A stretch of DNA of 61,958 nucleotides from a candidate division Zixibacteria bacterium SM23_73_2 (GCA_001304315.1 LJUW01000001.1:1-61958), one strand, 5' to 3'; shown: positions 11,449-27,601, counted from the stretch's first letter. Numbers and translations are program-made. Notes: generated by a model not told the origin, from the letters alone.

Positions 11449-12657
11449 TTAGGTACGGAACAAAATCCACTCTTTTTCAAAAAGCCTTTTGGTAACGTAG
11501 ATCGAAAAGGATGCATAGATCACCGTGGAAACGAAAATCAACCCGATAAATCCCCAGTTGTAGGTGCCTAAAAGCACCTCCTTGGCTGCCAGGGAGACGT
11601 TTATCACCGGCACGAAAGCCAAGGGCCAGTTCAACTCCACCCCGGGCATAAAGGTTATCATAGCGGGCATTATCAGTAAAAACATAAAAGGGGTGATGTA
11701 GCTTTGAGCCTCCTTATAGGATTTGGCAAAAAGAGACACCGACAGAAGAAGGGAGGAAAACAAAGCAGAGATGGGCAGAAGTAGAATTAAGATAATCAAA
11801 ATAGATGTGAGTTTTATCGAGATCTGAACCTCCTCCGGCGTAAAGGGTCCCATTTTGGCAAAACCGATACCCGCAGTTATGCTCATACTGCAGGTAGCCA
11901 AAACAGCGGTTATCATCGAGATGGTCATCACACACAAAAATTTTCCAGTGGCTAACTCCCCTCTTGATACTGGTGAGGCTAATATGGTCTCCAAAGTTCC
12001 CCTTTCCTTTTCTCCAGCAGTAAGATCGATGGCTGGATACATCGCGCCGATTAAAGCTAAGATGATAATCATATAGGGAAGAAACATCGACAGCATAAAC
12101 CCACCCATCTTCTCCTGGGAAGCCACGTTCTCCTCCTTTATATCTACCGGTTGCAGAAGTGATCTGTCGACTTTTCTTTTTTTCAATCTCTGAGTAACCA
12201 TACTGTCCTCATAATGACTCAGGTAATCCCTGAGTTTTCCAACAGCCATACTCGATTTAACCTCAGCCTCATCGTAATAAATTGTTGCCTGAGCACTATC
12301 CTCTGCTTCAATCATATTTTCGAAATCTTCAGAAAACGAAAGGGCAGCCTCTGCCCTCTTATCCCTGATCGCATCTCTGAAGTTGGTCTCGTATGTTATC
12401 TTAAACTCCCCCTCCTGGGAAAGCTTTCGGGTCAGAGAAGGTGCGTTCGCTTTCCCTACAATCACCACCCTGGGTGGTATCTTTTCTGCTTCCTCCATGA
12501 AAAAAACCACCAGCCCGCTCATCCCGAACATAAGCACAGGAAAAAGTAAAATGGGGACCAAAATCATTGAAATTATGGTTCTTCGGTCCCTTAAGGTATC
12601 AAGCATCTCCTTGAAATAGACTATTTTTGTCTTTTTGAAATCCAACTCACTCTCCAA
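11449..12657 (-). CDS. ABC-2 permease, NatB family (Na+ efflux-like)
   Basis: YFKEMLDTLRDRRT, AIDLTAGEKERGTLETILASP, AKSYKEAQSY; multiple TM helices. Confidence 0.88.
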   Translation of the reverse strand: MESELDFKKTKIVYFKEMLDTLRDRRTIISMILVPILLFPVLMFGMSGLVVFFMEEAEKIPPRVVIVGKANAPSLTRKLSQEGEFKITYETNFRDAIRDKRAEAALSFSEDFENMIEAEDSAQATIYYDEAEVKSSMAVGKLRDYLSHYEDSMVTQRLKKRKVDRSLLQPVDIKEENVASQEKMGGFMLSMFLPYMIIILALIGAMYPAIDLTAGEKERGTLETILASPVSRGELATGKFLCVMTISMITAVLATCSMSITAGIGFAKMGPFTPEEVQISIKLTSILIILILLLPISALFSSLLLSVSLFAKSYKEAQSYITPFMFLLIMPAMITFMPGVELNWPLAFVPVINVSLAAKEVLLGTYNWGFIGLIFVSTVIYASFSIYVTKRLFEKEWILFRT

Positions 12658-13378
12658 CTATTTTCACAAAAATGTCATCCAGGCTGTCCAAATTGGTCTT
12701 TTGGCGATATTCAGCAAGAGTAGCCACCTCCAGGATTTTCCCCTTATGTATAATCGCGATATCATCACAGAGCTTCTCCGCCTCGTGCATCACATGGGTT
12801 GAAAACAAAACTATTTTGCTCCTCTGTTTGGAGCTTTTCACAAAATCGATTATGTTCCTGGAGGTAATCACATCCAGACCCAAGGTAGGCTCGTCCAGGA
12901 TCAATACCTGGGGATCATGCACCATGGTTCGGGCGATCGATACCTTCTGCTTCATCCCGGTGGAAAGCTTATCTACCTTCATATCCCGGTAATCGTTCAT
13001 GTCCAATATCTCAAAGATTTCGTCAATCCGCCTTCTGATAGCCTCCTTTTCCATCCCGTTCAACCGGGCGAAATAGGTAACCGTCTCAAATGCCGTGAGC
13101 CTGGGATAAAGACCGGTATCCGAGGATAAAAAACCTATCCTTTTTTTTACCATCTCGGGCTGATTCAATATTTCGTATCCGTCGATTTTGGCTGTGCCGG
13201 AGGTGGGTTTCAAGCTGGTGGATAAAATCCGCATCAGGGTGGTTTTGCCCGCACCGTTTAGTCCTAAAAGACCGAATATCCTACCGGGCTTGCATTCCAG
13301 ACTAACACCATCGACCGCTTTTATCTCTCCCCTTTTTTTATCAGAGAATATTTTGGTGAGGTTAAAGGTTTTTATCAT
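12647..13378 (-). CDS. ABC transporter ATP-binding protein, NatA family
   Basis: Walker A GLNGAGKT, LSTGMKQKV signature, ILDEPT, STH. Likely start ATG at 13378. Confidence 0.9.
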   Translation of the reverse strand: MIKTFNLTKIFSDKKRGEIKAVDGVSLECKPGRIFGLLGLNGAGKTTLMRILSTSLKPTSGTAKIDGYEILNQPEMVKKRIGFLSSDTGLYPRLTAFETVTYFARLNGMEKEAIRRRIDEIFEILDMNDYRDMKVDKLSTGMKQKVSIARTMVHDPQVLILDEPTLGLDVITSRNIIDFVKSSKQRSKIVLFSTHVMHEAEKLCDDIAIIHKGKILEVATLAEYRQKTNLDSLDDIFVKIVGE

Positions 13379-13407
13379 CTTCAATGGATCGAGTCAAGCC
13401 AAAGATG

Positions 13408-14814
13408 TTATCTTTGGTAGCTGTCAAGCCTGATCTCCTCCTCCCAATCGGGATCGTAGATCTCCCCCACCGCATTGGAATGAACTAACCTGTAAACTCC
13501 GAAACCGCCCTCATCCACAAATATGAAAAACACACCGCTTTGTTTTCGATGCAAAAAATCCTCATCGATATTATGATAGCTCCATTTTTCCCATGGTTTG
13601 AATTCAGTACCAAGGGGATAGCGTTCCCTCTCATCCGGTTCCCCATATTGAATATACACTCTTCCCATATCAGTTTTCCACCCGTCCTCAGACTGGGATG
13701 TTCTGGAGAACATCTGGTTCGCATAATTCCAGCTTCGGTAGTGCTTGATCTTAAACTCGTTTTCCGGGGTATCAGGATAGGGATCCCTTTTCCTCCAGAA
13801 CTCAGTTAAAAATCCCCTTTTCCCTGTAAGGTTCAGCTGGTCGAACAAATCCAGCTCTTCCTTTGTGGCAATGTAACTTATCTCTTCCCTTATTTTTTTT
13901 ACCTCTTCCAGAGTTAAAATCTCTTCCTCAGTCTTGGGGATCATCTTTTTTATGACTCTAAATTCTTTTGAGGATAAGCTTTTCTGACCAGAAGACAAAT
14001 CCAGAGCTTCGATCTCAAGATAAAAGTCACCTTCTGGAAAGGTGCTGATATTTATCCCGCTGGTCACCACCGAGGAATTTCCGGGTTTCTCCAAAGTCTG
14101 GGATCCAAAACTTTTGAATTTTTTACCCGAAGAATCCAGAACATGAAAACTCAGGGTGTATCTTTTATCCTTTTCTGGTGAAAACTCTAAATTGTAAATC
14201 TCGGAGTAAAAATAAAGCATCCTATCCTTGGTGCTGAAAACCCGGGTAGGATTGGGCATAACCTTTCGCATCCCTTTTACAAATTTACCTGTGCCGGTGT
14301 CCGGCTCGACCTGAAATGCCAGCTCGATTTGGCTCAAAAGGAGTTCTTTCTTGTTGTAATCGAGGACCTTTATACCTATGCTCTTTTCCCCTTGTTTTTT
14401 TGAATTTAAATCCTGTGCCACAAGCTCAAGAGAGAATTTACCCGGAGAAAGAAGAACCGGTATCAAATCGATTATCAGAAATTCCTTTTCCTCAGCCTCC
14501 TTCAACTCTTTTATCGCGGAGGCAACTTTCCATACTTTGTCCTCCACCACCCGATCTAAAGAATCGACGATCTTAAGTTGCAACTCGACTACCGAAGCGA
14601 AAGCGCCCTCCTTTTGAGGATAAAACTCAAGCTGTTTTCTGTCCAGGGCATAATATATCTCCACGTATGATCTGGTGGTATCCAGTGCATAGGTAAAGGA
14701 GGTATAATCCACCCACAGATCCAAATCCGAAGACGAAGGATATTCTGCAGTTGAAACTGATAACAAAAATAAAAAGAATATTATAAAAATATTTCTTATC
14801 TTAAGTAAAAACAT
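13408..14814 (-). CDS. GWxTD domain-containing exported protein
   Basis: Likely start ATG at 14814 (MFLLKIRNIF... signal peptide); FWRKRDPYPDTPENEF and GWKTDMGRVYIQYGEPD. Confidence 0.85.
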   Translation of the reverse strand: MFLLKIRNIFIIFFLFLLSVSTAEYPSSSDLDLWVDYTSFTYALDTTRSYVEIYYALDRKQLEFYPQKEGAFASVVELQLKIVDSLDRVVEDKVWKVASAIKELKEAEEKEFLIIDLIPVLLSPGKFSLELVAQDLNSKKQGEKSIGIKVLDYNKKELLLSQIELAFQVEPDTGTGKFVKGMRKVMPNPTRVFSTKDRMLYFYSEIYNLEFSPEKDKRYTLSFHVLDSSGKKFKSFGSQTLEKPGNSSVVTSGINISTFPEGDFYLEIEALDLSSGQKSLSSKEFRVIKKMIPKTEEEILTLEEVKKIREEISYIATKEELDLFDQLNLTGKRGFLTEFWRKRDPYPDTPENEFKIKHYRSWNYANQMFSRTSQSEDGWKTDMGRVYIQYGEPDERERYPLGTEFKPWEKWSYHNIDEDFLHRKQSGVFFIFVDEGGFGVYRLVHSNAVGEIYDPDWEEEIRLDSYQR

Positions 14815-14827
14815 CCAATGCCCATTT

Positions 14828-16144
14828 TTATTTTCTTTTAACCCCCCGATCGTAGATATAATCCAGCTCCCATTCTCCTGTGCCGGTCTGGTCCACAAAG
14901 ACCACCTTTATCTGTGTATCGTAATAGTACCAAACCTGATATGGTTTGGCTTCCATCTCGAAGGGGTGACGTTCTATCTCATCCGGATGACCATAGATCA
15001 TATATATCCTTCCCATGTCGGTTTCCCAGCCCTCCTTGTTCCAGACCCCGAAATTCCTCTCTACATACCTCAGCCTCCTGTAATATTCCTCCATAAGCTC
15101 ATTTTTTTGTGTGCCCGGTGTAGGATCCTTTGATTTCCAGAACTCTGCCCATTCTATTAACTGATCTTCCTTTTTGGATTTTTTCAGCCTTTCCATCTCA
15201 TCCCCGGTAGCTATGTATCTTAACTGATCAACCGCTTTTTCAAAATCTGCTTTTATAACTGAAAGCATCGACCACGCTATCTGGAAATTATCCTTTGATT
15301 TTGCTAAAGTTTTTTTCTTCTCATCCTGTAGTAGGACCGAAAGGGTGTAATCTCCAGGAGGGATTTTCTCCACAGAGATTTCTTTGTAAACGGGGGTTAT
15401 TCGGTCTTCTGAAAAAAGAGTATCCTTCTCCTCTAAAACTTTCTCCTTTCTGTTCTCATCGACTATTTGGTAGTTTAGAAAATACATCTTTTGTGGATCC
15501 TTTTCCCCATATATCTCATAGTACAGGTAAAATTTTGATTCATCAAACGTTCGGGAAACCGAGGGGATGACCTCCTTCCCCCTTTTCTCGAATTTCGGAT
15601 TTCTCACCGAATCGGAGATATCCCGGGAGAACAAAAGTGGGCTGAGGATGTATTTCTTGGGATCAAACTCGGGAATAACCGCATCCATCCTTTGGATCCA
15701 GCTTCTGGAAGAGTTTAAGTCTATCAGTTCCAGCACCAATTCATATCGCCCTGGTCGTATTTTATTATTCAGCATATTTATCAAAAAACCACTCTCGGAG
15801 ATCGTCTCCGAATAATGACTCACGAAAAGATTCTCCTCCAAAGAAGTTGCGGTTATCTGATGCCCCTTGCGATCCAGTATGGTCAAATTTACCTCATAGG
15901 AAGCTTGAAACCTCTCCCCTGCTTTCACGAAACTCAGCTTCTCGTTGAAGATCTTGTAGTATACCTCCAATCTCCAATCCTCTCCATCCTCTTTAAAACA
16001 GGAATAATCGACCAGAAAATCGGATCTCTTTGAACTCTTTAAAAAGCCAAAATCGGTCTGGGAAAAGACCAAAGAGCAAAAAATCCATAAAATTACAACG
16101 GTAGAAAAATACAATATTTTATTAATTTTATCTTCTCTTTTCAT
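14828..16144 (-). CDS. GWxTD domain-containing exported protein
   Basis: Signal-like N-terminus (start 16144 or 16207); FWKSKDPTPGTQKNE and GWETDMGRIYMIYGHPD. Confidence 0.85.
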   Translation of the reverse strand: MKREDKINKILYFSTVVILWIFCSLVFSQTDFGFLKSSKRSDFLVDYSCFKEDGEDWRLEVYYKIFNEKLSFVKAGERFQASYEVNLTILDRKGHQITATSLEENLFVSHYSETISESGFLINMLNNKIRPGRYELVLELIDLNSSRSWIQRMDAVIPEFDPKKYILSPLLFSRDISDSVRNPKFEKRGKEVIPSVSRTFDESKFYLYYEIYGEKDPQKMYFLNYQIVDENRKEKVLEEKDTLFSEDRITPVYKEISVEKIPPGDYTLSVLLQDEKKKTLAKSKDNFQIAWSMLSVIKADFEKAVDQLRYIATGDEMERLKKSKKEDQLIEWAEFWKSKDPTPGTQKNELMEEYYRRLRYVERNFGVWNKEGWETDMGRIYMIYGHPDEIERHPFEMEAKPYQVWYYYDTQIKVVFVDQTGTGEWELDYIYDRGVKRK

Positions 16145-16302
16145 CTCATTTTTTAAATAACGATTTTCAGTCGAATTCGCAACATAAAAATTAAATAAAT
16201 TTTTCATCTTCGAAATTGCTGGGAGGGTTCAATTTGAGCTAATATCAAGCTCGCAAAAAAATCCGACCCTTATACTATCCTAGAAAAGAATATCGATTTC
16301 CC

Positions 16303-18915
16303 TTAACATTCTCCTAAGATAAACGGACATCCAGGTGCCGGACCTCCCTTTAACAAATGGTTAGTTAAAAAGATCACGTCCGAAAGTCTTATAAAACCAT
16401 CACAGTCACAATCCCCTGAGCTCAAAGGAGAAGGCGGAGTATCTCCCTGGAGGAGGTAATTGGATAAATATGTAGCATCAGCTAAAGACAAAGTCCCATC
16501 AGCGTTTACATCCCCTCGAATATAAGAGTTAGGGGTAAAACTCCAGACCTGATCGGACCACATCTCCGATCCCCAAAGATCAAAAGCTTTGACCTTCCAA
16601 TGATAGGAAAAATCCGTGGTGTCGGACAGAAGGCCTGAAATGGTGTAACTGTTCTCTTTTAAAGAATCGATCACCTCAGTGGAATCCTGGTTAAAAACCT
16701 CGGATCTGGAAAGATACAAAGTATAAAGCACCGAGTCGCCAGGATCGGGATCCGAAGCTTCCTGCCACAGCAAAGTTAAACTATCATCGTAGATCAAGGT
16801 ATCGTCCGGAGGGAAGATCAAACAGAAATTGTAAGTTGGCTCGACCAGGAAGGTTAAAAAGTCGAAGATTTGATCTGACCATCTGTAAAGCCCCCCGGAA
16901 TCGACACCTTTCACCTTCCAGAAATATCTGGTATCATCAGATAAACCGGACAGGTTATGGCTGGTGTCAGTTGAGGTGTAGACCGAATCGAAGGTTAAGA
17001 AGGTGCTGTCAGTTGAATAAAAAAGCGAGTATCCAACCGTATCCTCTGGATCGGCTGGCTGGCTTTTTTGCCAGAATAGATCGGAACTTAAATTCCATAT
17101 GGTATCACCCTCATGGGGAAAGATCAAAGAAAAACTGCCCAGAGGTGAATACCGGGATACCCCGACGACTTTGAAATCATCTATGTTCCACCCTCCCAGC
17201 TCCACCCACCCATCCGTGTCCATTTCAAATCTTACTTTAACCGAGGGATTAGAATCAGCAAAGGATGAGATATCGATATCGTGGTGCTTCCATCCATAAT
17301 CGACATGATCATAATAGGGCTGATTCTCCCAAACCAAATTCCCATTTACCATAATTCTTGCTCGATCATAGATACCCTTCTCCACCCCTAAGAAGCGACG
17401 ATACCAAAGCCTTACGTTCTTAAATCCTTGACAATCGATCTCCGGGGATTCGAGGTAGTTTGTGGAGTTGGAAGGATATTCACCATTTAGGTCGTTACCC
17501 CAAATCTTGCTTCCGGAAAAGGCGGACTCAGGATCTGATCTTGATCCTTCCAAGGGTGTTCCATGCTCCCAGTCATCGTAATTAAAAATTGCATCATGAG
17601 TCCAGCCGCCATCATCCCCCTCCATATCATCGAAAAATATTGTGAAAAGCTCCCCGGCAAAAAGATAAAAACTGTCTAAGTAGCTTCCCTCATTGCAAAG
17701 GATGTTCAAGGTGAAGTCGATTTTTGTTCCGATGGCAACAAAAGAGTCCACCTCGAAAGCGAAGTGGGGGGAAAGGGAAGTTTGACTCTGACCATCCAGA
17801 ATATTCGGGAAAATGGCAACTGAATCAATCAGGTCAACTCCAGGGGTGGAGATCCTCAAGGTAGCTTCAACCCCGGTGGCTGGCTCCTTATATACATTCT
17901 CCAAAGTTACCTTCAGATTTATGTTTTCATGGGGATCAATTATTCCATCGTTGTTTCCGGTTGAATCGGTAACCTCACAGCTTTTATAAGCGAGCTGGGT
18001 AGGGTTGGCGGGAGTGTAATCCAGAAGAGTTGCGGAGTATCCTATGTTGCAGCTTCCATATTTAATGTAAAAATACCCGTTTTCACCCCATCCGGTTCCC
18101 CAGCTGTTCTTCACTATCCAGGCACCCTCTCCGCTGCACACCGTGTCATCCCAGCCCACGATTAAAACAGCGTGATTGACCGGATCCTGGCCCGGATTCT
18201 CATAGCACCCCCCGCCGTAGTACTTGAAATCGTCAAAAACCGTCATAGCGCAGGCAACCGGACCGGTTAAAAGGGAAGCCTTTATGGAGTTTACATCAGT
18301 GGCAATGTAGTTCCAGCCCTGGATTTTGTCAACCACCTCGCATGATAATTGACTGCAGTTTACCGTATCCTTGGCGGTGTAAGGCATGCATGATTCCAAA
18401 ACCGAGCCGTAGGATCTGAAAAGCTCGTAAGCATAGTCCATCCAACCCCCATCGCAACCCGCTCCGTAAACGTTGCAGGATAAAATCTGCTGTTCGGACA
18501 GGTCATAACCGGTTGAATCATATATTTTTATCATAGCCTCAAATGCTCCCTGAGCTGCGAAAGCCCAGCAGGAGCCACAACTACCCTGGTGTCTCACCGG
18601 GGTAACTCCATCCTCATCCCGCCAGTCGAAAACCTGCGGTAAATCCAGAGGCTTTTGTAATTTAAAGAGCTTTCGATCTTTTCTTTTTTCCTCATATCCT
18701 TCTGGGATCCTAAGCCCCAAAAGCTTTTGAAAATCCTTTTCCGAAAGATCGGATATCGAAGTTTTTTTGGCAATCCAGTTGTACCCCTTTCCCTCTATCC
18801 TCTTTTGAACCTCAAGTAATCTCTGATCATCAGTGTTTTGAGGTGGATCTGATGCAATGCTTAGGTTAAATAAAATAATTAGAAGTAAAGTCAAAGAAGC
18901 AAAAATTCTCCACAT
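16303..18915 (-). CDS. Secreted papain-family (C1A) cysteine peptidase with Ig-like/beta-sandwich/FN3-like domains and C-terminal dockerin
   Basis: Likely start ATG at 18915. QGSCGSCWAF, NHAVLIVGWD and WIVKNSWG give the catalytic Q/C/H/N. YFWKVKG and YHWKVKA FN3-like motifs. Duplicated GDVNADG..S.AD / GDCDCDG....SD dockerin loops. Confidence 0.9.
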   Translation of the reverse strand: MWRIFASLTLLLIILFNLSIASDPPQNTDDQRLLEVQKRIEGKGYNWIAKKTSISDLSEKDFQKLLGLRIPEGYEEKRKDRKLFKLQKPLDLPQVFDWRDEDGVTPVRHQGSCGSCWAFAAQGAFEAMIKIYDSTGYDLSEQQILSCNVYGAGCDGGWMDYAYELFRSYGSVLESCMPYTAKDTVNCSQLSCEVVDKIQGWNYIATDVNSIKASLLTGPVACAMTVFDDFKYYGGGCYENPGQDPVNHAVLIVGWDDTVCSGEGAWIVKNSWGTGWGENGYFYIKYGSCNIGYSATLLDYTPANPTQLAYKSCEVTDSTGNNDGIIDPHENINLKVTLENVYKEPATGVEATLRISTPGVDLIDSVAIFPNILDGQSQTSLSPHFAFEVDSFVAIGTKIDFTLNILCNEGSYLDSFYLFAGELFTIFFDDMEGDDGGWTHDAIFNYDDWEHGTPLEGSRSDPESAFSGSKIWGNDLNGEYPSNSTNYLESPEIDCQGFKNVRLWYRRFLGVEKGIYDRARIMVNGNLVWENQPYYDHVDYGWKHHDIDISSFADSNPSVKVRFEMDTDGWVELGGWNIDDFKVVGVSRYSPLGSFSLIFPHEGDTIWNLSSDLFWQKSQPADPEDTVGYSLFYSTDSTFLTFDSVYTSTDTSHNLSGLSDDTRYFWKVKGVDSGGLYRWSDQIFDFLTFLVEPTYNFCLIFPPDDTLIYDDSLTLLWQEASDPDPGDSVLYTLYLSRSEVFNQDSTEVIDSLKENSYTISGLLSDTTDFSYHWKVKAFDLWGSEMWSDQVWSFTPNSYIRGDVNADGTLSLADATYLSNYLLQGDTPPSPLSSGDCDCDGFIRLSDVIFLTNHLLKGGPAPGCPFILGEC

Positions 18916-19033
18916 AAAAATCCCCTTAATTTGAGTCAAAGAAATCAACCTTTCCCAATCATTATAATTTTCGGAAACCCTGAGTAAAATAATTAATTTA
19001 AAAGTGAGAAAATAGATGTTTTATGGGCTAAAT

Positions 19034-20425
19034 TTAATTTTGAAAAAATGGTTTTAACTTCCCGGAAGCGGGTTTGGGGGTTAAAAGACTTACCGTGATT
19101 AAAAAGCCCACGGACATAAAAAGGGCAGGATAAATCGTGGGAACGTTTTGAGGTTGACCCAGCGCTTCCCAAAGAAGGGTGGTTAACATCCCCGCGCCGA
19201 TAGAGCAAACCCCGCCCCAGGAGGTGGCCCTTTTCCAGAAAAAAGCAGCCAAAACCGCAGGGGTTATTCCCACACCATACATGGTATAGGCATATAATGC
19301 CATCTTCAGAATCGAGCTGAAAAACTGGACCTGGAGATAAGCTAAAATTCCCAAGGCGATAACTACCAGGCGCGAATACAAAACGATCTTTTTCTGGGAG
19401 GCATGGGGATTTAAAAATCTCTGGTATATATCCCGGATGACATTAGTGGAAGGAACCAGCAAAAACGAATCAGCAGTTGAAACGATTATGGCAACTATGG
19501 CAGCCAAAAGCAGGCATCCCAGAAACAAAGGAAGCCCAAACCGGGCTGAATGAAGGATAACCGATTCGGATTTAATATTCAAGAATATCGCCGAACCGAC
19601 AACAGCCAAAACCACAATAGCTGTTTCTAAAATGATCGTTCCCCCTATCCATCCCACCACCGCCTTTTTAGCTGTTTTCTCATCCTTGGCTGAGAAGAAT
19701 CTCTGGTACATATTGGATTCGCCTAAAAGCAAAAGCATTGTGGGAAGCGAGTATCCCAGAGCCTCCCAGATGCTCATAGTACCTAACACCTGGAAACGTT
19801 CCTGGGGTAGATTGGCCACGATATTCCCCCACCCTCCGGCATTGGAAATCAAAAAGGGCAAGGCTAAAAAAATGCCCATGGTCATAACCACTCCATTCAC
19901 CAAGTCGGTGTAGGCTACCGAGATCATCCCTGCCAAAAAAGTGTAGGTGATCACAAAGACTGCGGTAATTATGATTCCATCGGATACCGGAATCCCGGTT
20001 ACCAGATTCAAAACCATTCCTCCGGCTCTGAATTGGTAACTCACGATCGCGGTGTATGCCACTATGGTGGTTATTGCTCCTAAGATCCTCGCATATTTGT
20101 TATACCTTACCTCCAGAATATCCGGAACAGTGTACTGGGCAAAAGCCCTGATCCTTCCAGCGATCAAATACAAAATCACAATTGCGACCCAAACCCCGGC
20201 ATCAAACCAGAGGGCTGAAAAACCTCTCCGGTAAGCAAGACCGGCACCAGCAATGATGCTTCCCGAACCGATCCAGGTTGCCAGAAGGGTTCCCACCAAA
20301 ACGGTCGCAGGAAGTTTTCTTCCGGCAACCATGAAGTCATCCTGGGTTTTGACCAGCTTGCTTCTTTTAGCTCCTACCAGGATCAAAAACAGAAGATAAA
20401 CAAGGATTGCCCAGAAATAAACCAT
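19034..20425 (-). CDS. Sodium:solute symporter (SSS family)
   Basis: DDFMVAGRKL, ATWIGSGSIIAG, AYTD, MYQRFFSAKD, AAIVAIIVSTADS; many TM helices. Confidence 0.92.
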   Translation of the reverse strand: MVYFWAILVYLLFLILVGAKRSKLVKTQDDFMVAGRKLPATVLVGTLLATWIGSGSIIAGAGLAYRRGFSALWFDAGVWVAIVILYLIAGRIRAFAQYTVPDILEVRYNKYARILGAITTIVAYTAIVSYQFRAGGMVLNLVTGIPVSDGIIITAVFVITYTFLAGMISVAYTDLVNGVVMTMGIFLALPFLISNAGGWGNIVANLPQERFQVLGTMSIWEALGYSLPTMLLLLGESNMYQRFFSAKDEKTAKKAVVGWIGGTIILETAIVVLAVVGSAIFLNIKSESVILHSARFGLPLFLGCLLLAAIVAIIVSTADSFLLVPSTNVIRDIYQRFLNPHASQKKIVLYSRLVVIALGILAYLQVQFFSSILKMALYAYTMYGVGITPAVLAAFFWKRATSWGGVCSIGAGMLTTLLWEALGQPQNVPTIYPALFMSVGFLITVSLLTPKPASGKLKPFFQN

Positions 20426-20475
20426 TGAACCTTCAAACTATTAAACTGTTGAACCATTAAACTCTTAAACCAACA
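20420..20475. repeat. Degenerate 8-bp tandem array (7 units) over the symporter start
   Basis: AACCATTG AACCTTCA AACTATTA AACTGTTG AACCATTA AACTCTTA AACCAACA. Confidence 0.75.
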
Positions 20476-20560
20476 AAATAATCTTTACATCAAAACCATA
20501 GAAGCTTCAATCTTTTGTAATTTAAACTACCGTCTCGACCTTCAAACAGCTGAGGATTTT

Positions 20561-23173
20561 TCACTCTTCAACCTTTCCCACCACCACAAGCGTGTATTTG
20601 TCCGGATCCAGATATCTTCTAGCTACCTCACCTGCCCTCTCCTTTGTAACCTGGAGTACTTCCTCTGGATAATCCTCGATAAATCCATACCCTTTTCCAA
20701 CCATCTGGTAAAACGCTAAATATTTCGCAGTACCGGAGTTGGTCTGTTGAGCAAAGGAAATATTTGTTAAAAGGGTCTTTTTGGCGATATCTAAATCGAT
20801 CTCCGAGATTGGATCTTCGATTAATTTTTTGATTTCCCCTAAAATCCCTTGTCGAGCCTCTTCGAAATTCTCAGGTGACACCCCCATCTCGAAGGTAAAA
20901 GGCGAGGATCCCATGGTTGGACGAATATAAGTCCACATCCTGTATGCCATCCCTTCCTGGTAAACGTACTTGAAGAATAACCTGGAGCCTAAAATCCTCT
21001 CAACCAATTTCAAAGGGATGTAATCAGGATGGGTAACCGCAACTCCCATCCTGCCCAAGTTGAAAGTGGCCTGCGTTTTCTTCTCAGTTACAAATTTCAT
21101 TTTCTTTTTCTTCTGCGGGGATTCGTTAATGATCTTTAACTTTAAAGGCTCCCCTTCTGGTAAACTTGAAAATGCCTCTTTTAGATCCTTTTCCATCCTA
21201 TCCAGATCGAAATCCCCAACCACAGATAAAATCACATTTTGTGGAACGTAAACTTTTTTATGAAAAGCTAAAAGATCGTCGCGGGAAATGTTTGATACGG
21301 TGTTGGTCTCACCCAAAATTGGACGAGAATATGGGGATTTCTCGAAAACCTCTTTGGCAAACTCCTTATTGGTCAGATCATAGCTTCTATCAGGAACACT
21401 TTTTATTTTAGTTGTTATATCCTCCCTCACCTTCTCAATTTCCTCCTGAGGAAAGGAAGGGGAGAACATAACCTCGGAGAAAAGTTCAAGACCTTTTTTG
21501 AAGCTCTCCGGCGTAGAAAGCAGTCCCACTTCGGAGTAATCTTCAAAACTTTGCGAGAAAAGTTTGATTCCCAGACTGTCTATGAGTCGGGATAGTATTT
21601 CATTGGTATAATTTGCAGTACCTTTCAGAAGTGCTTTTGAAACGAAAGATGCGATCCCATTTTTCTGTAGCTCCTCTGCCCAGAGCCCGCCTTTAACATA
21701 GCCTTCTAAGGCAATGGTCTTGGATGAATGATCCTCTTTTATAATAATAGTCAATCCGTTATCCAGAACGAACTTCTGGGCTTGGCTTTCCTCTTCTACA
21801 TCTGCGGTTTTTTCAGATATATACGAAGAGGCGATTTCTTTAAAGGATATATCCTCTTTATCCTCGGGCAAAACTAATGCTAAGGTTGCGTTGGTTGGAA
21901 CAATATATTTTGTAACTACTCTTTTTATATCAGATGGAGTGGCATTCGAGATTCTCTCCAGGTAGGATGCCTCCAGCATTATATTGCTGATGGCTCCGTA
22001 ATGACACAGTCTTTGAGCCTGGGATAAGTAGGTCTGGTTGTCGTAATAATAAAAATTCTCTATCTTCTTTTTGGCTTTCTCCAGTTCAGCCTTCGAGACT
22101 TCCTCCTGGCTCAACCTCTTAAGCTCCTCAAAGATTATCTTAACTGCTTCTTTTTCAACTCCGGGATCAAGCTGACATTCCAGAACGAAAAGACCCGGAT
22201 CTTTTCTTTCGATTGCGTAGGAGTCAACCGAGAAAACTAAATTTTTTTCAACCTTCAACCTCTTGTGCAATCTCGAGCTTTTACCGTCAGTCAATATGGT
22301 ACTTACCAGATCCAACACCGGAATATCCCCGGATTTGGCCTCAGGGATGTGATAGCCCAGAAGAAGGTAGGTGGAATGACATTTCATCCTCTGGATTACT
22401 TCCTTGAACTCGTTTTGGGGCGGTTCTGAAATTCCCAGTTCAAAAGAGTCTTTACCCTTGGGGTAAATTCCAAAAGCCTCATTGGCTTTCTCCATCATCC
22501 GGGGAGTATCGAAATCCCCAACCACTGCCATGACAAGCTGGTTGGGCACATAGCGTTCCTCATAAAATGTCTTTAAAAGATCTAAGTCAGCCTTTTTGAC
22601 CACCTCCTTGTACCCAATAACCGGGCGCTTGTAGGGATGAACATCATAAGCGGTCTCCTCCAGAAGGTCCCACACTCTAAAGTCAGGCCTATCCTGGTAC
22701 ATATAAATCTCCTCCAGGATGATCTGGCGCTCGGTCTCGATTCTTTTTTCATCAGGAACCAGGTTCATCACCACATCAGCATATCTCCACAATCCTTCAT
22801 CGAAATTCTCTTTTGGGGTTACTATATAGTAGCAGGTAACGTCATTGCTGGTAAAACCGTAAAAAGTGCCCAGGCTCTGGAAAGATTTTCTGGTTTCAAG
22901 CTCCTCCTGCTTTTCGGTTCCACCTCGAAAGATCAGATGCTCGTAGTAATGGGAAAGCCCTGAAAGCTCAGGGGGCTCGGTTCGGCTGCCACCTTTTACG
23001 TAGATGCACATGGCGATCAAATCCCTGGAATGGTCCTTCTTGGTCAAAACCATCATTCCGTTATCCAGGGTATGTATCTCCACCGGATCACCGGGCAGGG
23101 CATTTGAAACAGAAAAGCTCAAGAAAAAAACAAAAAAGCTTAAGATTATAAGTTTTGAAATTCTGAAAAACAC
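20561..23173 (-). CDS. Secreted M16 (pitrilysin/PqqL-type) zinc peptidase, two halves fused
   Basis: Likely start GTG at 23173 (GAGGAGG RBS, signal peptide). Inverted zinc motif HYYEH in the N-half; the C-half lacks it. Confidence 0.92.
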   Translation of the reverse strand: MFFRISKLIILSFFVFFLSFSVSNALPGDPVEIHTLDNGMMVLTKKDHSRDLIAMCIYVKGGSRTEPPELSGLSHYYEHLIFRGGTEKQEELETRKSFQSLGTFYGFTSNDVTCYYIVTPKENFDEGLWRYADVVMNLVPDEKRIETERQIILEEIYMYQDRPDFRVWDLLEETAYDVHPYKRPVIGYKEVVKKADLDLLKTFYEERYVPNQLVMAVVGDFDTPRMMEKANEAFGIYPKGKDSFELGISEPPQNEFKEVIQRMKCHSTYLLLGYHIPEAKSGDIPVLDLVSTILTDGKSSRLHKRLKVEKNLVFSVDSYAIERKDPGLFVLECQLDPGVEKEAVKIIFEELKRLSQEEVSKAELEKAKKKIENFYYYDNQTYLSQAQRLCHYGAISNIMLEASYLERISNATPSDIKRVVTKYIVPTNATLALVLPEDKEDISFKEIASSYISEKTADVEEESQAQKFVLDNGLTIIIKEDHSSKTIALEGYVKGGLWAEELQKNGIASFVSKALLKGTANYTNEILSRLIDSLGIKLFSQSFEDYSEVGLLSTPESFKKGLELFSEVMFSPSFPQEEIEKVREDITTKIKSVPDRSYDLTNKEFAKEVFEKSPYSRPILGETNTVSNISRDDLLAFHKKVYVPQNVILSVVGDFDLDRMEKDLKEAFSSLPEGEPLKLKIINESPQKKKKMKFVTEKKTQATFNLGRMGVAVTHPDYIPLKLVERILGSRLFFKYVYQEGMAYRMWTYIRPTMGSSPFTFEMGVSPENFEEARQGILGEIKKLIEDPISEIDLDIAKKTLLTNISFAQQTNSGTAKYLAFYQMVGKGYGFIEDYPEEVLQVTKERAGEVARRYLDPDKYTLVVVGKVEE

Positions 23174-23222
23174 AAAACCTCCTCGGTTGGAAATTAAAAT
23201 GCAGTTAACTTTCCAGGCTAAT

Positions 23223-23251
23223 ATTAAACTCAAAATTTTTGGGGGTGTCAA
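23223..23251 (-). promoter_or_regulatory. Putative sigma70 promoter of the M16 gene
   Basis: Minus strand TTGACA-N17-TTTAAT about 50 bp upstream of the start. Confidence 0.5.
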
Positions 23252-23385
23252 GTTATATTTGGAGATCCTTGAAAAAGTGGTGTTATCAAATCATAAACTC
23301 AAACCAGAAAGGTCAAGTACGAAAGAGTAGGTGAGAAAATAAAATCCCGGGCCAACAAAAATCCGGGGTTGGTAAGGGAATCAAA

Positions 23386-24147
23386 TCATCTCAGCAAAAG
23401 CATCTTTTTTGTCTGGGAAAATTCTTCTGTTTTGATTTTATAAAAATAGATTCCGGTGGCAACATCCTCTCCCCTGTGGTCTTTTCCATCCCACAGAACA
23501 GAATGAAAACCAGCCTGTTTCTTTGTATCCACCAAGGTTTTTACTTTCTGACCCAGGATATTATAAACTGATAAGTTAACATGATAATTCTCAGGAAGGG
23601 CATATTGTATATCAGTGTAAGGATTAAAAGGATTGGGATGGTTCTGAAAAAGGATAAATCGGGTTGGTAGATCAGGGTTTTTTTCTTCCTCAACGCTCAC
23701 ATAAACTGGATCGAAATCAAATTCCAGCTCCTCCGCATCCGAGTCGACAATGGAGATGCCTTCCTGATGATGGATAGTGGTGGACTCGAATTCCAAAGAA
23801 TCTTCTCCGCTGAATTTCAATCTCACCAAAGCTCCCTCACCGGAGGGGATATATTCCTCATCCAGAACAATAGCAAATACCATCACCGTTTTCTGGTTGT
23901 TGTCCACTATAACCTCCTTAAGGGTAAGAGAGCTTAATTTTGTATCGACAAAGGAAAAGGAATCACAAAATACATCATCTCCAAAATCTGCGAACTTCAA
24001 AGGTAAGGCAATTGCCCCTAAATCTTTTTGATTATCAAGTTTAAAGGTAATCCAGTCCCCGGACCGGGTTAAGTTTATCTGATTAGACCAGGCTGAAACG
24101 TAAAGAATTAGAATCAATAATATCCCCGAAAATAAAGTCCTTTTCAT
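23386..24147 (-). CDS. Small secreted protein: cohesin-like domain plus FlgD-Ig/T9SS type-A-like C-terminal domain
   Basis: Likely start ATG at 24147 (GGAGG RBS), signal peptide. ITFKLDNQKDLGAIALPLKF...YIPSGEGALVRLKF resembles a cohesin. QNHPNPFNP...YNILGQKV..L...WDGKD..G..VATGIYFYKI...KKMLLLR is the CTD-like tail. Confidence 0.75.
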   Translation of the reverse strand: MKRTLFSGILLILILYVSAWSNQINLTRSGDWITFKLDNQKDLGAIALPLKFADFGDDVFCDSFSFVDTKLSSLTLKEVIVDNNQKTVMVFAIVLDEEYIPSGEGALVRLKFSGEDSLEFESTTIHHQEGISIVDSDAEELEFDFDPVYVSVEEEKNPDLPTRFILFQNHPNPFNPYTDIQYALPENYHVNLSVYNILGQKVKTLVDTKKQAGFHSVLWDGKDHRGEDVATGIYFYKIKTEEFSQTKKMLLLR

Positions 24148-24484: not shown

Positions 24485-24513
24485 TTGACAAAGCTTTTTT
24501 GCGTATATATATT
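24485..24513 (+). promoter_or_regulatory. Sigma70 promoter of the tRNA cluster
   Basis: TTGACA (24485-24490), 17-bp spacer, TATATT (24508-24513), 20 bp before tRNA-Gly. Confidence 0.8.
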
Positions 24514-24532: not shown

Positions 24533-24606
24533 GCGGGAATAGCTCAGCTGGCTAGAGCATCACCTTGCCAAGGTGAATGTCGCGGGTTCGAATCCCGTTT
24601 CCCGCT
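24533..24606 (+). tRNA. tRNA-Gly(GCC)
   Basis: GCGGGAA/TTCCCGC acceptor stem, D-arm AGCTCAGCTGGCTAGAGC, anticodon arm CACCT-TGCCA-AGGTG, GGTTCGAATCC T-arm. CCA not encoded. Confidence 0.97.
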
Positions 24607-24725
24607 CAAATTTTTGTCCGGGGGACAAAAATTCGTTAATGGTTGATCGTTAATAGTTATCAGTGTTTTACCATAAACTATCTACTATAAACCAAAAACT
24701 GTCCCCCGCTTATGGCGGGGGACAT

Positions 24726-24797
24726 GGCGGCTTAGCCAAGTGGTAAGGCGGAGGTCTGCAAAACCTCTATACTCCGGTTCGAACCCGGAAGCCGCCT
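24726..24797 (+). tRNA. tRNA-Cys(GCA)
   Basis: GGCGGCT/AGCCGCC acceptor stem, GAGGT-CTGCAAA-ACCTC anticodon arm, CCGGTTCGAACCCGG T-arm. Confidence 0.97.
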
Positions 24798-25760: not shown

Positions 25761-26705
25761 ATGAGGTCTCGACTTCTTCTCAACCACCTTTTGATAGTTG
25801 CTTTCCTGATTCCATTTGCTATAATACTTATAATTACATCCTGTGAGGGAGAAGAAAAAATTAAGATGAAGGATTTAGTACCAACAGAAATTCAAGGGTG
25901 GAAACAGCAAAGTAAGGTTGAGATTTATGACCGTGAGACGATCTTCGATTACATCAACGGAGCTGGTGAGGTCTATTTATCATATGACTTCCAGAAGCTC
26001 TGGGTATTCCGCCTGGTCAAATCTGAGAAACCAAATATCGTCGTTGAGATATTTGATATGGGTTTACCAGAGGATGCCTTCGGTGTATTCAGCCATGCAC
26101 GCGAATCAGAAGAGATCGGGATTGGCCAGGGCTCAGAACAGAGAGGTGGTCTTCTGTGCTTCTGGAAAGGTAACTTATTTGTTTGCATTTTCTCTGAGGG
26201 ACAGTCATCAGAAACGAAAAAAGCAGTGCTTGATCTTGCTAGAAAAATCGAGCAAAGAATCAAAGTCACAGGCGAAAAACCAAAGCTTTTAGCCTGTTTA
26301 CCAGATGAGGATTTACAACAGCAAAGCGTTCGCTATTTCCATCTACACACCTCCCTGAACTATCATTATTACTTAGCTTCTGAAAACATACTGAATCTCA
26401 ACCCACGAACCGAAGCAGTGCTTGGCAGATACAAACTCAATCAGACCTATCTCCTCTTAGTTCATTATCCAGACCAAAACGATGCAGACAAAGCTTATAG
26501 TAATTTCCTTAATTCATATATTCCCGAAGCTAAAGATAAAGGAGTCGCTCAAATAGAAAAAGGCAAATGGGTGAAAGCTGAAAAAGAAGGTGAATTCGTC
26601 ATAGTAGTCTTTGATGCTCCCACTGAAGCTTATGCCCAAGCTTTAATTCAAGCTGTCAGAGATAAAATATTGAAATTATCCTCAGAAGAGGTGAAAAACA
26701 AATGA
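25761..26705 (+). CDS. Lipoprotein, DUF6599-like
   Basis: Lipobox ITSC; YDRETIFDYINGAGEVYLSYDF and VEIFDMG...AFGVFS motifs; ATGA overlap with the next gene. Confidence 0.75.
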   Translation: MRSRLLLNHLLIVAFLIPFAIILIITSCEGEEKIKMKDLVPTEIQGWKQQSKVEIYDRETIFDYINGAGEVYLSYDFQKLWVFRLVKSEKPNIVVEIFDMGLPEDAFGVFSHARESEEIGIGQGSEQRGGLLCFWKGNLFVCIFSEGQSSETKKAVLDLARKIEQRIKVTGEKPKLLACLPDEDLQQQSVRYFHLHTSLNYHYYLASENILNLNPRTEAVLGRYKLNQTYLLLVHYPDQNDADKAYSNFLNSYIPEAKDKGVAQIEKGKWVKAEKEGEFVIVVFDAPTEAYAQALIQAVRDKILKLSSEEVKNK

Positions 26706-27601
26706 GTGATTCTCAGAAAAATATTACCCGAAGGGACTTCATTCGCCAGGCTTCCTATGCTACCTTAGCAGTAACCCTGGGTTTATCCGCAGAGGGTTCG
26801 GAGAAGATCGAAGTCCCAAAAAAAACAAAAGTGGTTCTAATTAGAGACCCAAAAGTATTAGACAAAAAGGGAATGGTCAATCCCAAAGTGATCCAGAAAA
26901 TGCTGGATCAAGCCACCTGTTCCCTTTTTGAAAAAGAAGATCCTGTCCAGGCTTGGAAGCTTCTGATAAAACCAAAAGATGTGGTTGGAATAAAAAGCAA
27001 TGTCTGGGGTCCGCTTCCAACTCCCAAAGAGTTGGAACAGGCTATCAAAAAACGTATGATGGACGCAGGTGTCCTTGAAAAGAATATCGGAATTGACGAC
27101 CGCGGAGTATTACGCAACAAGATTTTTCTTAACTCAACTGCTCTGGTTAATGTTCGTCCGCTAAGAACTCACCACTGGTCAGGCGTAGGAGGATGTACCA
27201 AAAACCACATAATGTTCTCCCCCCATCCTCCAAAATACCATCCTAACTCCTGTGAGGATCTGGCAACAGTATGGGATTTGCCAATAGTAAAAGGCAAGAC
27301 CAGATTGAATATCTTAGTCTTACTCACACCACTTTTTCACGGAATCGGTCCGCACCATTTCGATTCGACCTATATGTGGGATTATAAAGGCATGTTAGTT
27401 GGAACCGACCCGGTTGCACTGGACGCAGTGGGCGTACGTATCTTCCAGGCAAAACGCCTCGCCTTTTTCGGCGAGGATCGTCCTTTAAAACCTCCCCCTC
27501 ATCACATCGTTTTCGCTGACACCAAGCACAAGCTGGGCACCAGTGATATGAAAAAAATTGAGCTGATTAAGTTAGGGTGGAAAGAAGATATACTGATATA
27601 A
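26702..27601 (+). CDS. DUF362 domain-containing protein with twin-arginine signal
   Basis: TRRDFIR Tat motif plus h-region; VGIKSN, LVNVRPLRTHHWSGVGGCTKN, GTDPVALD. Confidence 0.85.
   Translation: MSDSQKNITRRDFIRQASYATLAVTLGLSAEGSEKIEVPKKTKVVLIRDPKVLDKKGMVNPKVIQKMLDQATCSLFEKEDPVQAWKLLIKPKDVVGIKSNVWGPLPTPKELEQAIKKRMMDAGVLEKNIGIDDRGVLRNKIFLNSTALVNVRPLRTHHWSGVGGCTKNHIMFSPHPPKYHPNSCEDLATVWDLPIVKGKTRLNILVLLTPLFHGIGPHHFDSTYMWDYKGMLVGTDPVALDAVGVRIFQAKRLAFFGEDRPLKPPPHHIVFADTKHKLGTSDMKKIELIKLGWKEDILI

Follow-up and report, generated by a model that had tools for sequence, protein, structure and literature searches.

The 61,958-nucleotide stretch of DNA analysed here, to which we refer as the window, is contig C77 of the genome of candidate division Zixibacteria bacterium SM23_73_2 (G000; 2.26 Mb, 123 contigs, 86% complete). 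On its minus strand lies a gene for a 253-residue protein, miniCoh, that combines a single cohesin domain with a C-terminal sorting domain (CTD) of a type IX secretion system (T9SS). We propose that miniCoh is a general surface anchor delivered by the T9SS and comparable to the single-cohesin proteins OlpA and OlpC, and that the dockerin-bearing protease encoded nearby is a possible, but not a dedicated, client. We put the probability of this interpretation at about 0.6. An earlier note on the window had taken the miniCoh gene and the three genes that follow it for a proteolytic machine in which miniCoh exports or anchors the protease, an M16 peptidase trims peptides and a symporter imports the products.

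The closest protein relatives of the window are named Zixibacteria in the source databases, and near-identical DNA occurs in sequencing runs of four further studies that are labelled marine sediment or seawater metagenome.

A cohesin domain joined to a T9SS sorting domain

The miniCoh gene and the parts of its product are located as follows.

23386..24147, minus strand: miniCoh gene (253-residue single-cohesin T9SS protein), an open reading frame with a Shine-Dalgarno sequence before ATG 24147
24085..24147, minus strand: probable Sec signal peptide, residues 1-21 (ending in ...SAWS and followed by NQ), judged by eye, with a helix at residues 2-18 of the model
23677..24090, minus strand: cohesin-fold domain, residues 20-157, identified by AlphaFold2 (pLDDT, the predicted local confidence score, 89-96), VIA-align, Foldseek and hhalign
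23389..23664, minus strand: T9SS type A C-terminal sorting domain, residues 162-253, identified by TIGR04183, PF18962, PF13860 and a fold match

The start of the protein was placed at ATG 24147, which is preceded by the Shine-Dalgarno sequence GGGAGGAG and at which the orthologues (250-290 residues, 37-74% identity) also begin. An AlphaFold2 model of miniCoh, built on a 40-sequence alignment (A1), had a mean pLDDT of 89.2 and matches the cohesin fold, a nine-stranded beta jelly-roll. When this model was compared with the Protein Data Bank (PDB) by Foldseek, cohesins were the top matches for the region between signal peptide and CTD (3kcp, 4fl4, 2w1n, 3l8q, 2xdh and 6kgc, with E-values down to 2.8e-7). 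A fold comparison with 48,161 representative chains by VIA-align gave the same picture, as ranks 1 to 17 were occupied exclusively by cohesins (Z 10.3-14.5). The single-domain cohesins among these matches superposed with a root mean square deviation (rmsd) of about 2.2-4.0 Å over 118-131 of about 140 residues, and the first single-domain match other than a cohesin was CLIPPER at Z 9.7.

Profile comparisons point in the same direction. An hhalign alignment of ten orthologous N-domains (A3) with the genome's own seven Pfam-positive cohesin domains (A4) covered 109 columns with a probability of 87.3% and an E-value of 3.8e-6, and one aligned relative (P0072) has a precomputed PF00963 match. It should be noted that the PF00963 scan of the genome did not pick up the miniCoh gene, which has no match over the Pfam gathering score, and that a profile of 40 relatives run by hmmsearch against the PDB sequences returned no cohesin, the tail alone being matched, by FlgD- or CTD-type sequences. 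By modelled fold and by profile, the N-domain of miniCoh is nevertheless a true cohesin, and the earlier note, which had made this call by eye, is borne out on this point.

Domains of the window proteins were called by comparing Pfam and NCBIfam profiles with their curated cut-offs. In this way, the tail of miniCoh was recognised by TIGR04183 (41.2 bits; cut-off 23), PF18962 (30.8 bits) and PF13860 (40.6 bits), the Por_Secre_tail/FlgD_ig match being given at residues 182-261. Residues 162-253 of the model fold like the PorU, PorZ and mirolase CTDs (VIA-align Z 9.0-10.2). As judged from profiles and model, the tail that had been described as FlgD/T9SS-type-A-like is thus a type A CTD of the T9SS. 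Matching export components are encoded in the genome, namely SprA (398 + 312 bits; cut-off 200) and the sortase PorU (584 bits; cut-off 420), and it contains 39 CTD matches in all. Since SprA and PorU are present, the genome does possess machinery that recognises CTDs, the absence of which had been named as fatal to the earlier proposal. PorV is represented by matches below the cut-off, which are considered further below.

From these parts, the following route can be envisaged. miniCoh would be exported by Sec, and its type A CTD would then direct it through the SprA translocon. PorU would cut off the CTD, leaving the cohesin held on the outside of the outer membrane, where it is predicted to form a calcium-dependent socket to which dockerin-tagged proteins attach. 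In a complex prediction for the cohesin (residues 20-160, 40-row alignment), the dockerin of the C1 protease (29 rows) and two calcium ions, scores of 0.34, 0.46 and 0.35 were obtained as compared to 0.18, 0.02 and 0.00 for the controls, a margin that is under the mark and weighs neither for nor against binding.

Cohesins and dockerins across the genome

The Pfam model Dockerin_1 gave 52 matches in the genome, and a dockerin hidden Markov model (HMM) trained on the genome itself identified 80 modules in 75 open reading frames. On the cohesin side there were seven Pfam matches and ten frames found with an HMM of the miniCoh type, together about 14 cohesin-bearing frames. In the genome-wide census that the earlier note had called for, about 80 dockerins thus face about 14 cohesin frames, which does not support a pairing of neighbours only.

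Six cohesin frames have a T9SS tail. These are miniCoh, one frame each on contigs C19 and C27, and three proteins of 760-830 residues on contig C65. Frames on C65 contain two to three cohesins and no carbohydrate-binding module (CBM). Other cohesin frames end in a dockerin and, judging from this architecture, look like adaptors: two 265-residue cohesin-dockerin (Coh-Doc) frames on C86 and C25, one of 1044 residues on C30, and further frames on C59 and C48. The 265-residue frames (G000:C86:12464-13258 and G000:C25:20048-20842) consist of one miniCoh-type cohesin and one dockerin of the main cluster described below, and they are candidates for chaining onto the cohesin-CTD anchors. All three modules also occur together in one protein, as a frame at a contig end of another genome (locus L005, G001:C338:1171-2433, minus strand) contains a dockerin (45.5 bits), a miniCoh-type cohesin and a T9SS CTD in this order. 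Its cohesin is 49% identical to that of miniCoh and its dockerin 43% identical to that of the window protease, and the database relatives P0058, P0060 and P0097 likewise combine a dockerin with a CTD.

To define the cargo, 79 frames (74 with a dockerin and 5 with cohesins only) were scanned with Pfam at E≤1e-4, the window protease being scanned separately. Peptidases are carried by 12 of the 75 dockerin frames and belong to families C25 (five), C1 (two), C10, M1, M14 and M28, with one weak M6-like match. The other dockerin or cohesin frames scanned contain FG-GAP and SBBP propellers, Ig or cadherin domains, one CBM96, several DUFs, beta helices in two proteins and one weak BNR_2 match, and many match no family. 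Among the 79 scanned frames, no family of glycoside hydrolases, the dockerin-borne enzymes of a cellulosome, was found at E≤1e-4. miniCoh, with one cohesin and no CBM, also does not have the architecture of the multi-cohesin, CBM-bearing scaffoldin of a cellulosome. The clients of the proposed anchors would therefore be peptidases and repeat or adhesin-like proteins and not cellulases, and the adjacent C1 protease would be one plausible client out of about 75. The idea of a cellulosome-like machine for protein is thus supported as far as the peptidase cargo and the lack of glycoside hydrolases are concerned, and not supported as far as it invoked a dedicated set of four genes.

Clustering of the 80 dockerins placed that of the window protease in the main cluster (40 of 80), which also includes 9 of the 12 peptidases and both 265-residue adaptors. 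The other large cluster has a C-terminal ...NCC[PE] motif.

Both modules recur in the phylum. Pfam dockerins were detected in 277 of 285 phylum genomes, the exceptions being families f6 (0/3) and f18 (0/5), and first-look candidates numbered up to 332 per genome. The miniCoh domain type was found in 83 of the 285 genomes, and small miniCoh orthologues (frames of 222-289 residues) in 14 other genomes belonging to 3 families.

The adjacent protease and its dockerin

16303..18948, minus strand: papain-family C1 protease containing fn3-like modules and ending in a dockerin (Pfam), likely start ATG 18915
16351..16515, minus strand: dockerin module, residues 812-866 of the C1 protease (PF00404), with two calcium-loop repeats

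The C1 protease was matched by Peptidase_C1 (PF00112, 189 bits), fn3 and Dockerin_1 (PF00404, 31.8 bits; cut-off 22.9), and no Por_Secre_tail match was found in the Pfam scan. The description of this gene product as a papain-family protease with a two-loop dockerin and without a CTD was therefore correct. Its reading frame comprises 881 residues from a TTG codon or 870 residues from ATG 18915. The latter is most likely the actual start, since it is preceded by the ribosome-binding site AAGGGGA and since the database form P0121 also has 870 residues. In the 870-residue numbering, the catalytic residues Q110, C116, H248 and N270 expected of a papain-type C1 peptidase are invariant in 30 homologues (alignment A2).

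The dockerin, which scored 37 bits at the same coordinates in the genome dockerin scan, has the two D-x-[ND]-x-D-G loops of a type I dockerin and is followed by a Cys-containing 13-residue tail at the C-terminus of the protease. Two of its cysteines, C838 (second calcium loop) and C863 (immediately after the last helix), are likewise invariant in the 30 homologues (same alignment and numbering), which suggests a disulfide clamp.

A hand count of the protease's 120 best homologues gave 54 with a Pfam dockerin, 26 with a FlgD_ig (CTD-type) tail and none with both. Those with a dockerin are more closely related to the protease than those with a CTD-type tail, some of which are named Eisenbacteria. 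Judging from this swap of tails, one and the same protease body would get to the surface with the help of a CTD in certain lineages and bears a dockerin in Zixibacteria, which fits the view that the dockerin is an alternative way to the surface.

Gene order around miniCoh

The remaining features of the four-gene run and its upstream region are listed below.

20561..23251, minus strand: fused four-domain M16 zinc peptidase, 896 residues (Pfam M16 131 bits, M16_C 226 bits)
19034..20425, minus strand: sodium:solute symporter family (SSF) transporter, 463 residues (PF00474, 152 bits)
18949..19033, minus strand: spacer between symporter and protease, with a promoter-like TTTACT-16-TATAAT at 18988-18961 (site scan; conservation in a sister genome)
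24533-24607, plus strand: tRNA-Gly(GCC)
24726-24797, plus strand: tRNA-Cys(GCA)

The genes for miniCoh, the M16 peptidase, the SSF symporter and the C1 protease are consecutive open reading frames, and all four lie on the minus strand with the coordinates reported before. They are separated by spacers of about 134, 135 and 85-118 nucleotides.

We examined 15 loci around miniCoh orthologues and paralogues, ten of which were informative because at least 2.5 kb of downstream sequence was available. A cohesin gene adjoins a symporter and a C1-dockerin gene in only 1 of these 10 loci, which belongs to the sister genome G003 of the same genus. There, the symporter orthologue occupies the same position and is 86% identical. 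The M16 gene is not present at the G003 locus, the best M16 match of G003 being 30% identical and located on another contig, and adjacency to M16 is kept in 0 of the 10 informative loci. In other families the neighbours are genes for RecG, a PD-(D/E)XK nuclease, a kinase/pyrophosphorylase, a patatin-Omp85 protein, a SpoU methylase, glutamate dehydrogenases and a cyclophilin (PPIase). These conserved neighbours were considered as miniCoh partners and rejected as housekeeping genes.

The spacer between symporter and protease contains a block, TTTCCGAAAATTATAATG, that is identical in G003 and includes the promoter-like site, followed by the ribosome-binding site and the ATG. Overall, the promoter scan was at the level of chance (16 sites; 14.7 expected), with 15 terminators as compared to 10.6 expected. 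Against these chance-level counts, only the promoter-like site upstream of the protease gains weight, because it is conserved in G003. The miniCoh gene is preceded by about 390 nucleotides and the two divergent tRNA genes, and it therefore starts a unit of its own. In an alignment of this upstream region with the sister genome, conservation was found only around the tRNA-Gly gene. These observations agree with the caveat in the earlier note that separate promoters suggest more than one operon.

A partial link between protease and M16 peptidase can be seen in family f3. In four genomes of this family, a C1-dockerin paralogue of about 665 residues is directly followed by an M16 gene on the same strand, and in a fifth a divergent M16 pair lies upstream of the paralogue (loci L085-L088, L100 and L101 in genomes G209, G215, G217, G212 and G211). 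Since the f3 genomes are kin, this counts as one or two events and lends weak support to a protease-M16 link. Adjacency of the paralogue to M16 was found in 0 of 3 cases in family f1 and in 0 of 7 in f4, where the available flanks were just 1.5 kb. In G000 itself, no match to the short form was detected at E≤1e-60.

The M16 peptidase has two M16 and two M16_C stretches by Pfam, with the motif HYYEH in its translation. It has a probable signal peptide and neither dockerin nor CTD, and is probably periplasmic. As for the other putatively secreted proteins, secretion was judged by eye from an N-terminal hydrophobic segment. The symporter scored under every substrate-specific equivalog cut-off of NCBIfam (PutP 172 bits; cut-off 515), and the notion that it imports the peptide products found no support, as nothing links it to peptide uptake. 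The M16 peptidase and the symporter are encoded by separate genes, which may still serve the same proteolytic lifestyle.

Weighing of alternative interpretations

That the four genes form a dedicated proteolytic unit, with miniCoh anchoring or exporting the adjacent protease, M16 trimming and the symporter importing, would be in keeping with the shared strand and the short gaps, with the same grouping of cohesin, symporter and C1-dockerin genes in the same-genus genome, and with the pairing of C1-dockerin paralogue and M16 in f3, and both the window cohesin and the window dockerin are of common types. However, symporter and protease are neighbours of the cohesin gene at one informative locus only and housekeeping genes take their place elsewhere, M16 is gone from the sister locus, and the f3 cases shrink to one or two events. 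In addition, a conserved promoter-like block precedes the protease, the symporter lacks a substrate-specific assignment, and 75 dockerin frames face about 14 cohesin frames. By gene order, the run of four does not amount to a dedicated operon-like machine, and we consider this interpretation improbable. It is a different matter whether the N-domain of miniCoh binds dockerins at all. The cohesin fold might be used for another purpose, such as adhesion to a substrate or surface, in which case miniCoh would be an ordinary T9SS adhesin. The lack of a Pfam Cohesin match would agree with this, as would the related beta-sandwich adhesin domains of CLIPPER, Mfa5 and pilins, which match the model at Z 8.9-9.7. 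Yet about 4 Z units separate these domains from the best cohesin matches, the profile is homologous to that of the genome's own Pfam cohesins, and the domain type is fused to dockerins in the 265-residue frames on C86 and C25, the 1044-residue frame on C30 and the Doc-Coh-CTD frame on G001:C338. Moreover, about 80 genomic dockerins need partners. A use of the fold for something other than dockerin binding is therefore unlikely.

A further possibility concerns the order of events. Dockerin proteins could bind a cohesin-CTD protein already in the periplasm and cross the T9SS folded with it, the dockerin having replaced the CTD as an indirect, transferable export signal. The T9SS moves folded cargo, 72 of the 75 dockerin frames have no CTD, and the protease dockerin sits at the extreme C-terminus, in the place that a CTD-type tail takes in homologues from other phyla. 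Furthermore, a small 1:1 cohesin-CTD protein has been kept across families, and none of the three secretins of the genome reaches the GspD equivalog cut-off (best 180 bits; cut-off 351). On the other hand, the three secretin genes could belong to a type II system, and we know of no case of hitch-hiking through the T9SS, although no search aimed at such cases was made. We regard such co-export as quite a long shot.

The interpretation of miniCoh as a general anchor has its own difficulties. Residues of about 20-160 gave no Pfam match at E≤0.1. PorV was matched only below the cut-off (best 94 bits; cut-off 250), although one PorV-like frame adjoins a PorU fragment on contig C91. Neither of the motor proteins, GldL and GldM, was detected in the 86%-complete genome (TIGR03513, TIGR03517, PF12081), and a search for GldM across the order (G000 and 33 relatives) gave matches in 0 of 34 genomes, with no control genome giving a match either. 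The fate of the CTD, including its cleavage and lipid attachment, is assumed by analogy with Bacteroidota, the sole source. Dockerin proteins without a CTD would need some route across the outer membrane, be it the T9SS or a type II system with the three secretins, none of which reaches the GspD cut-off. Lastly, given several dockerin clusters and about 14 frames with cohesins, the adjacent protease may not be among the partners of miniCoh.

Other features of the window

Downstream of the C1 protease, at 13408-16207 on the minus strand, are tandem genes for GWxTD-domain proteins of 459 and 496 residues with a frame overlap of 71 nucleotides, and an ABC ATPase gene (12647-13384, minus strand) comes after this pair on the same strand. 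In the sister genome, genes for a HAD hydrolase, an outer-membrane protein (OMP) barrel, GAPDH and PGK are found in their place. On the other side of the run, the tRNA-Gly(GCC) gene is preceded by a promoter-like site close to the consensus (24485-24513), and a 10-bp GC-rich hairpin (24700-24724) separates the two tRNA genes. The plus strand at 25761-27601 encodes a DUF6599 and a DUF362 protein with a 4-nucleotide overlap, and the N-terminus of the latter is twin-arginine-like. Another DUF362 domain, in the frame G000:C116:924-2600, is joined to a C-terminal dockerin that was detected by the genome-trained HMM and not matched by the Pfam dockerin model.

Comparison with known systems

OlpA (3ul4) and OlpC (4dh2) of Acetivibrio (Clostridium) thermocellus resemble miniCoh in that one type I-like cohesin is combined with a surface-anchoring module. 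Their cohesins match the miniCoh model at Z 13.8, with an rmsd of 2.2-2.3 Å over 123-125 residues and 10-11% identity. OlpA and OlpC hold single dockerin-bearing enzymes directly on the cell, and miniCoh is proposed as their counterpart in a diderm. The anchors differ, as OlpA and OlpC are attached to the Gram-positive wall by surface-layer homology (SLH) repeats, whereas miniCoh has a T9SS CTD and would be placed at the outer membrane. The cargo differs too, being carbohydrate-active enzymes in the one case and peptidases and repeat proteins in the Zixibacteria. A cohesin outside any cellulosome is also known from Archaeoglobus fulgidus (2xdh; Z 13.6, and in Foldseek a TM of 0.67 on the target). 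None of the other structural matches is more similar to miniCoh in sequence (17-20% identity), but 2xdh comes from an archaeon, lacks a T9SS tail and stands in another protein context.

With respect to the tail, the T9SS proteases of Porphyromonas gingivalis (gingipains, PorU, PorZ) share the CTD fold of miniCoh (PorU 6za2, Z 10.2; PorZ 5m11, Z 9.2), and gingipain-type C25 peptidases are part of the Zixibacteria system as well. In P. gingivalis, each protease has its own CTD. In the Zixibacteria, by contrast, the proteases bear dockerins and the CTD is found on the cohesin protein.

A precedent for the combination comes from 'Ca. Stygibacter', an uncultured member of the Cloacimonadota in the FCB group. 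Williams et al. (2021; PMC8542988) predict a cellulosome-like complex, proposed to degrade polypeptides, in which S8/S53 and C25 peptidases are tagged with dockerins and a cohesin-bearing protein that has a T9SS CTD is inferred to be at the surface of the cell itself. The principle of dockerin-bearing peptidases and a cohesin with a T9SS CTD has thus been published for Cloacimonadota (PMC8542988). The 'Ca. Stygibacter' scaffoldin is described there as a protein of 3,755 residues with tandem cohesins and CBM2/CBM3, as compared to 253 residues, one cohesin and no CBM in miniCoh (PMC8542988). GH18 and GH57 enzymes are also listed there as dockerin-bearing (PMC8542988), whereas the dockerin proteins scanned here included no glycoside hydrolase, and the phylum is a different one. 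In the collection of papers that we searched, none on cohesins or dockerins of Zixibacteria was found.

Implications

For the window alone the gain is modest, in that a four-gene 'machine' is corrected to one general anchor with unrelated neighbours. Beyond the window, the present findings indicate that cohesin sockets are partly invisible to Pfam, and they raise the mechanistic question of how dockerin proteins without a CTD cross the outer membrane. A cohesin of 140 residues with a T9SS tail is the simplest piece of this system and would represent a natural surface-display module for diderm bacteria. If the predicted binding is true, the Zixibacteria, which are widespread in anoxic sediments, would apply the plug-and-socket principle of the cellulosome on their outer membrane, displaying proteases and adhesins there instead of cellulases.

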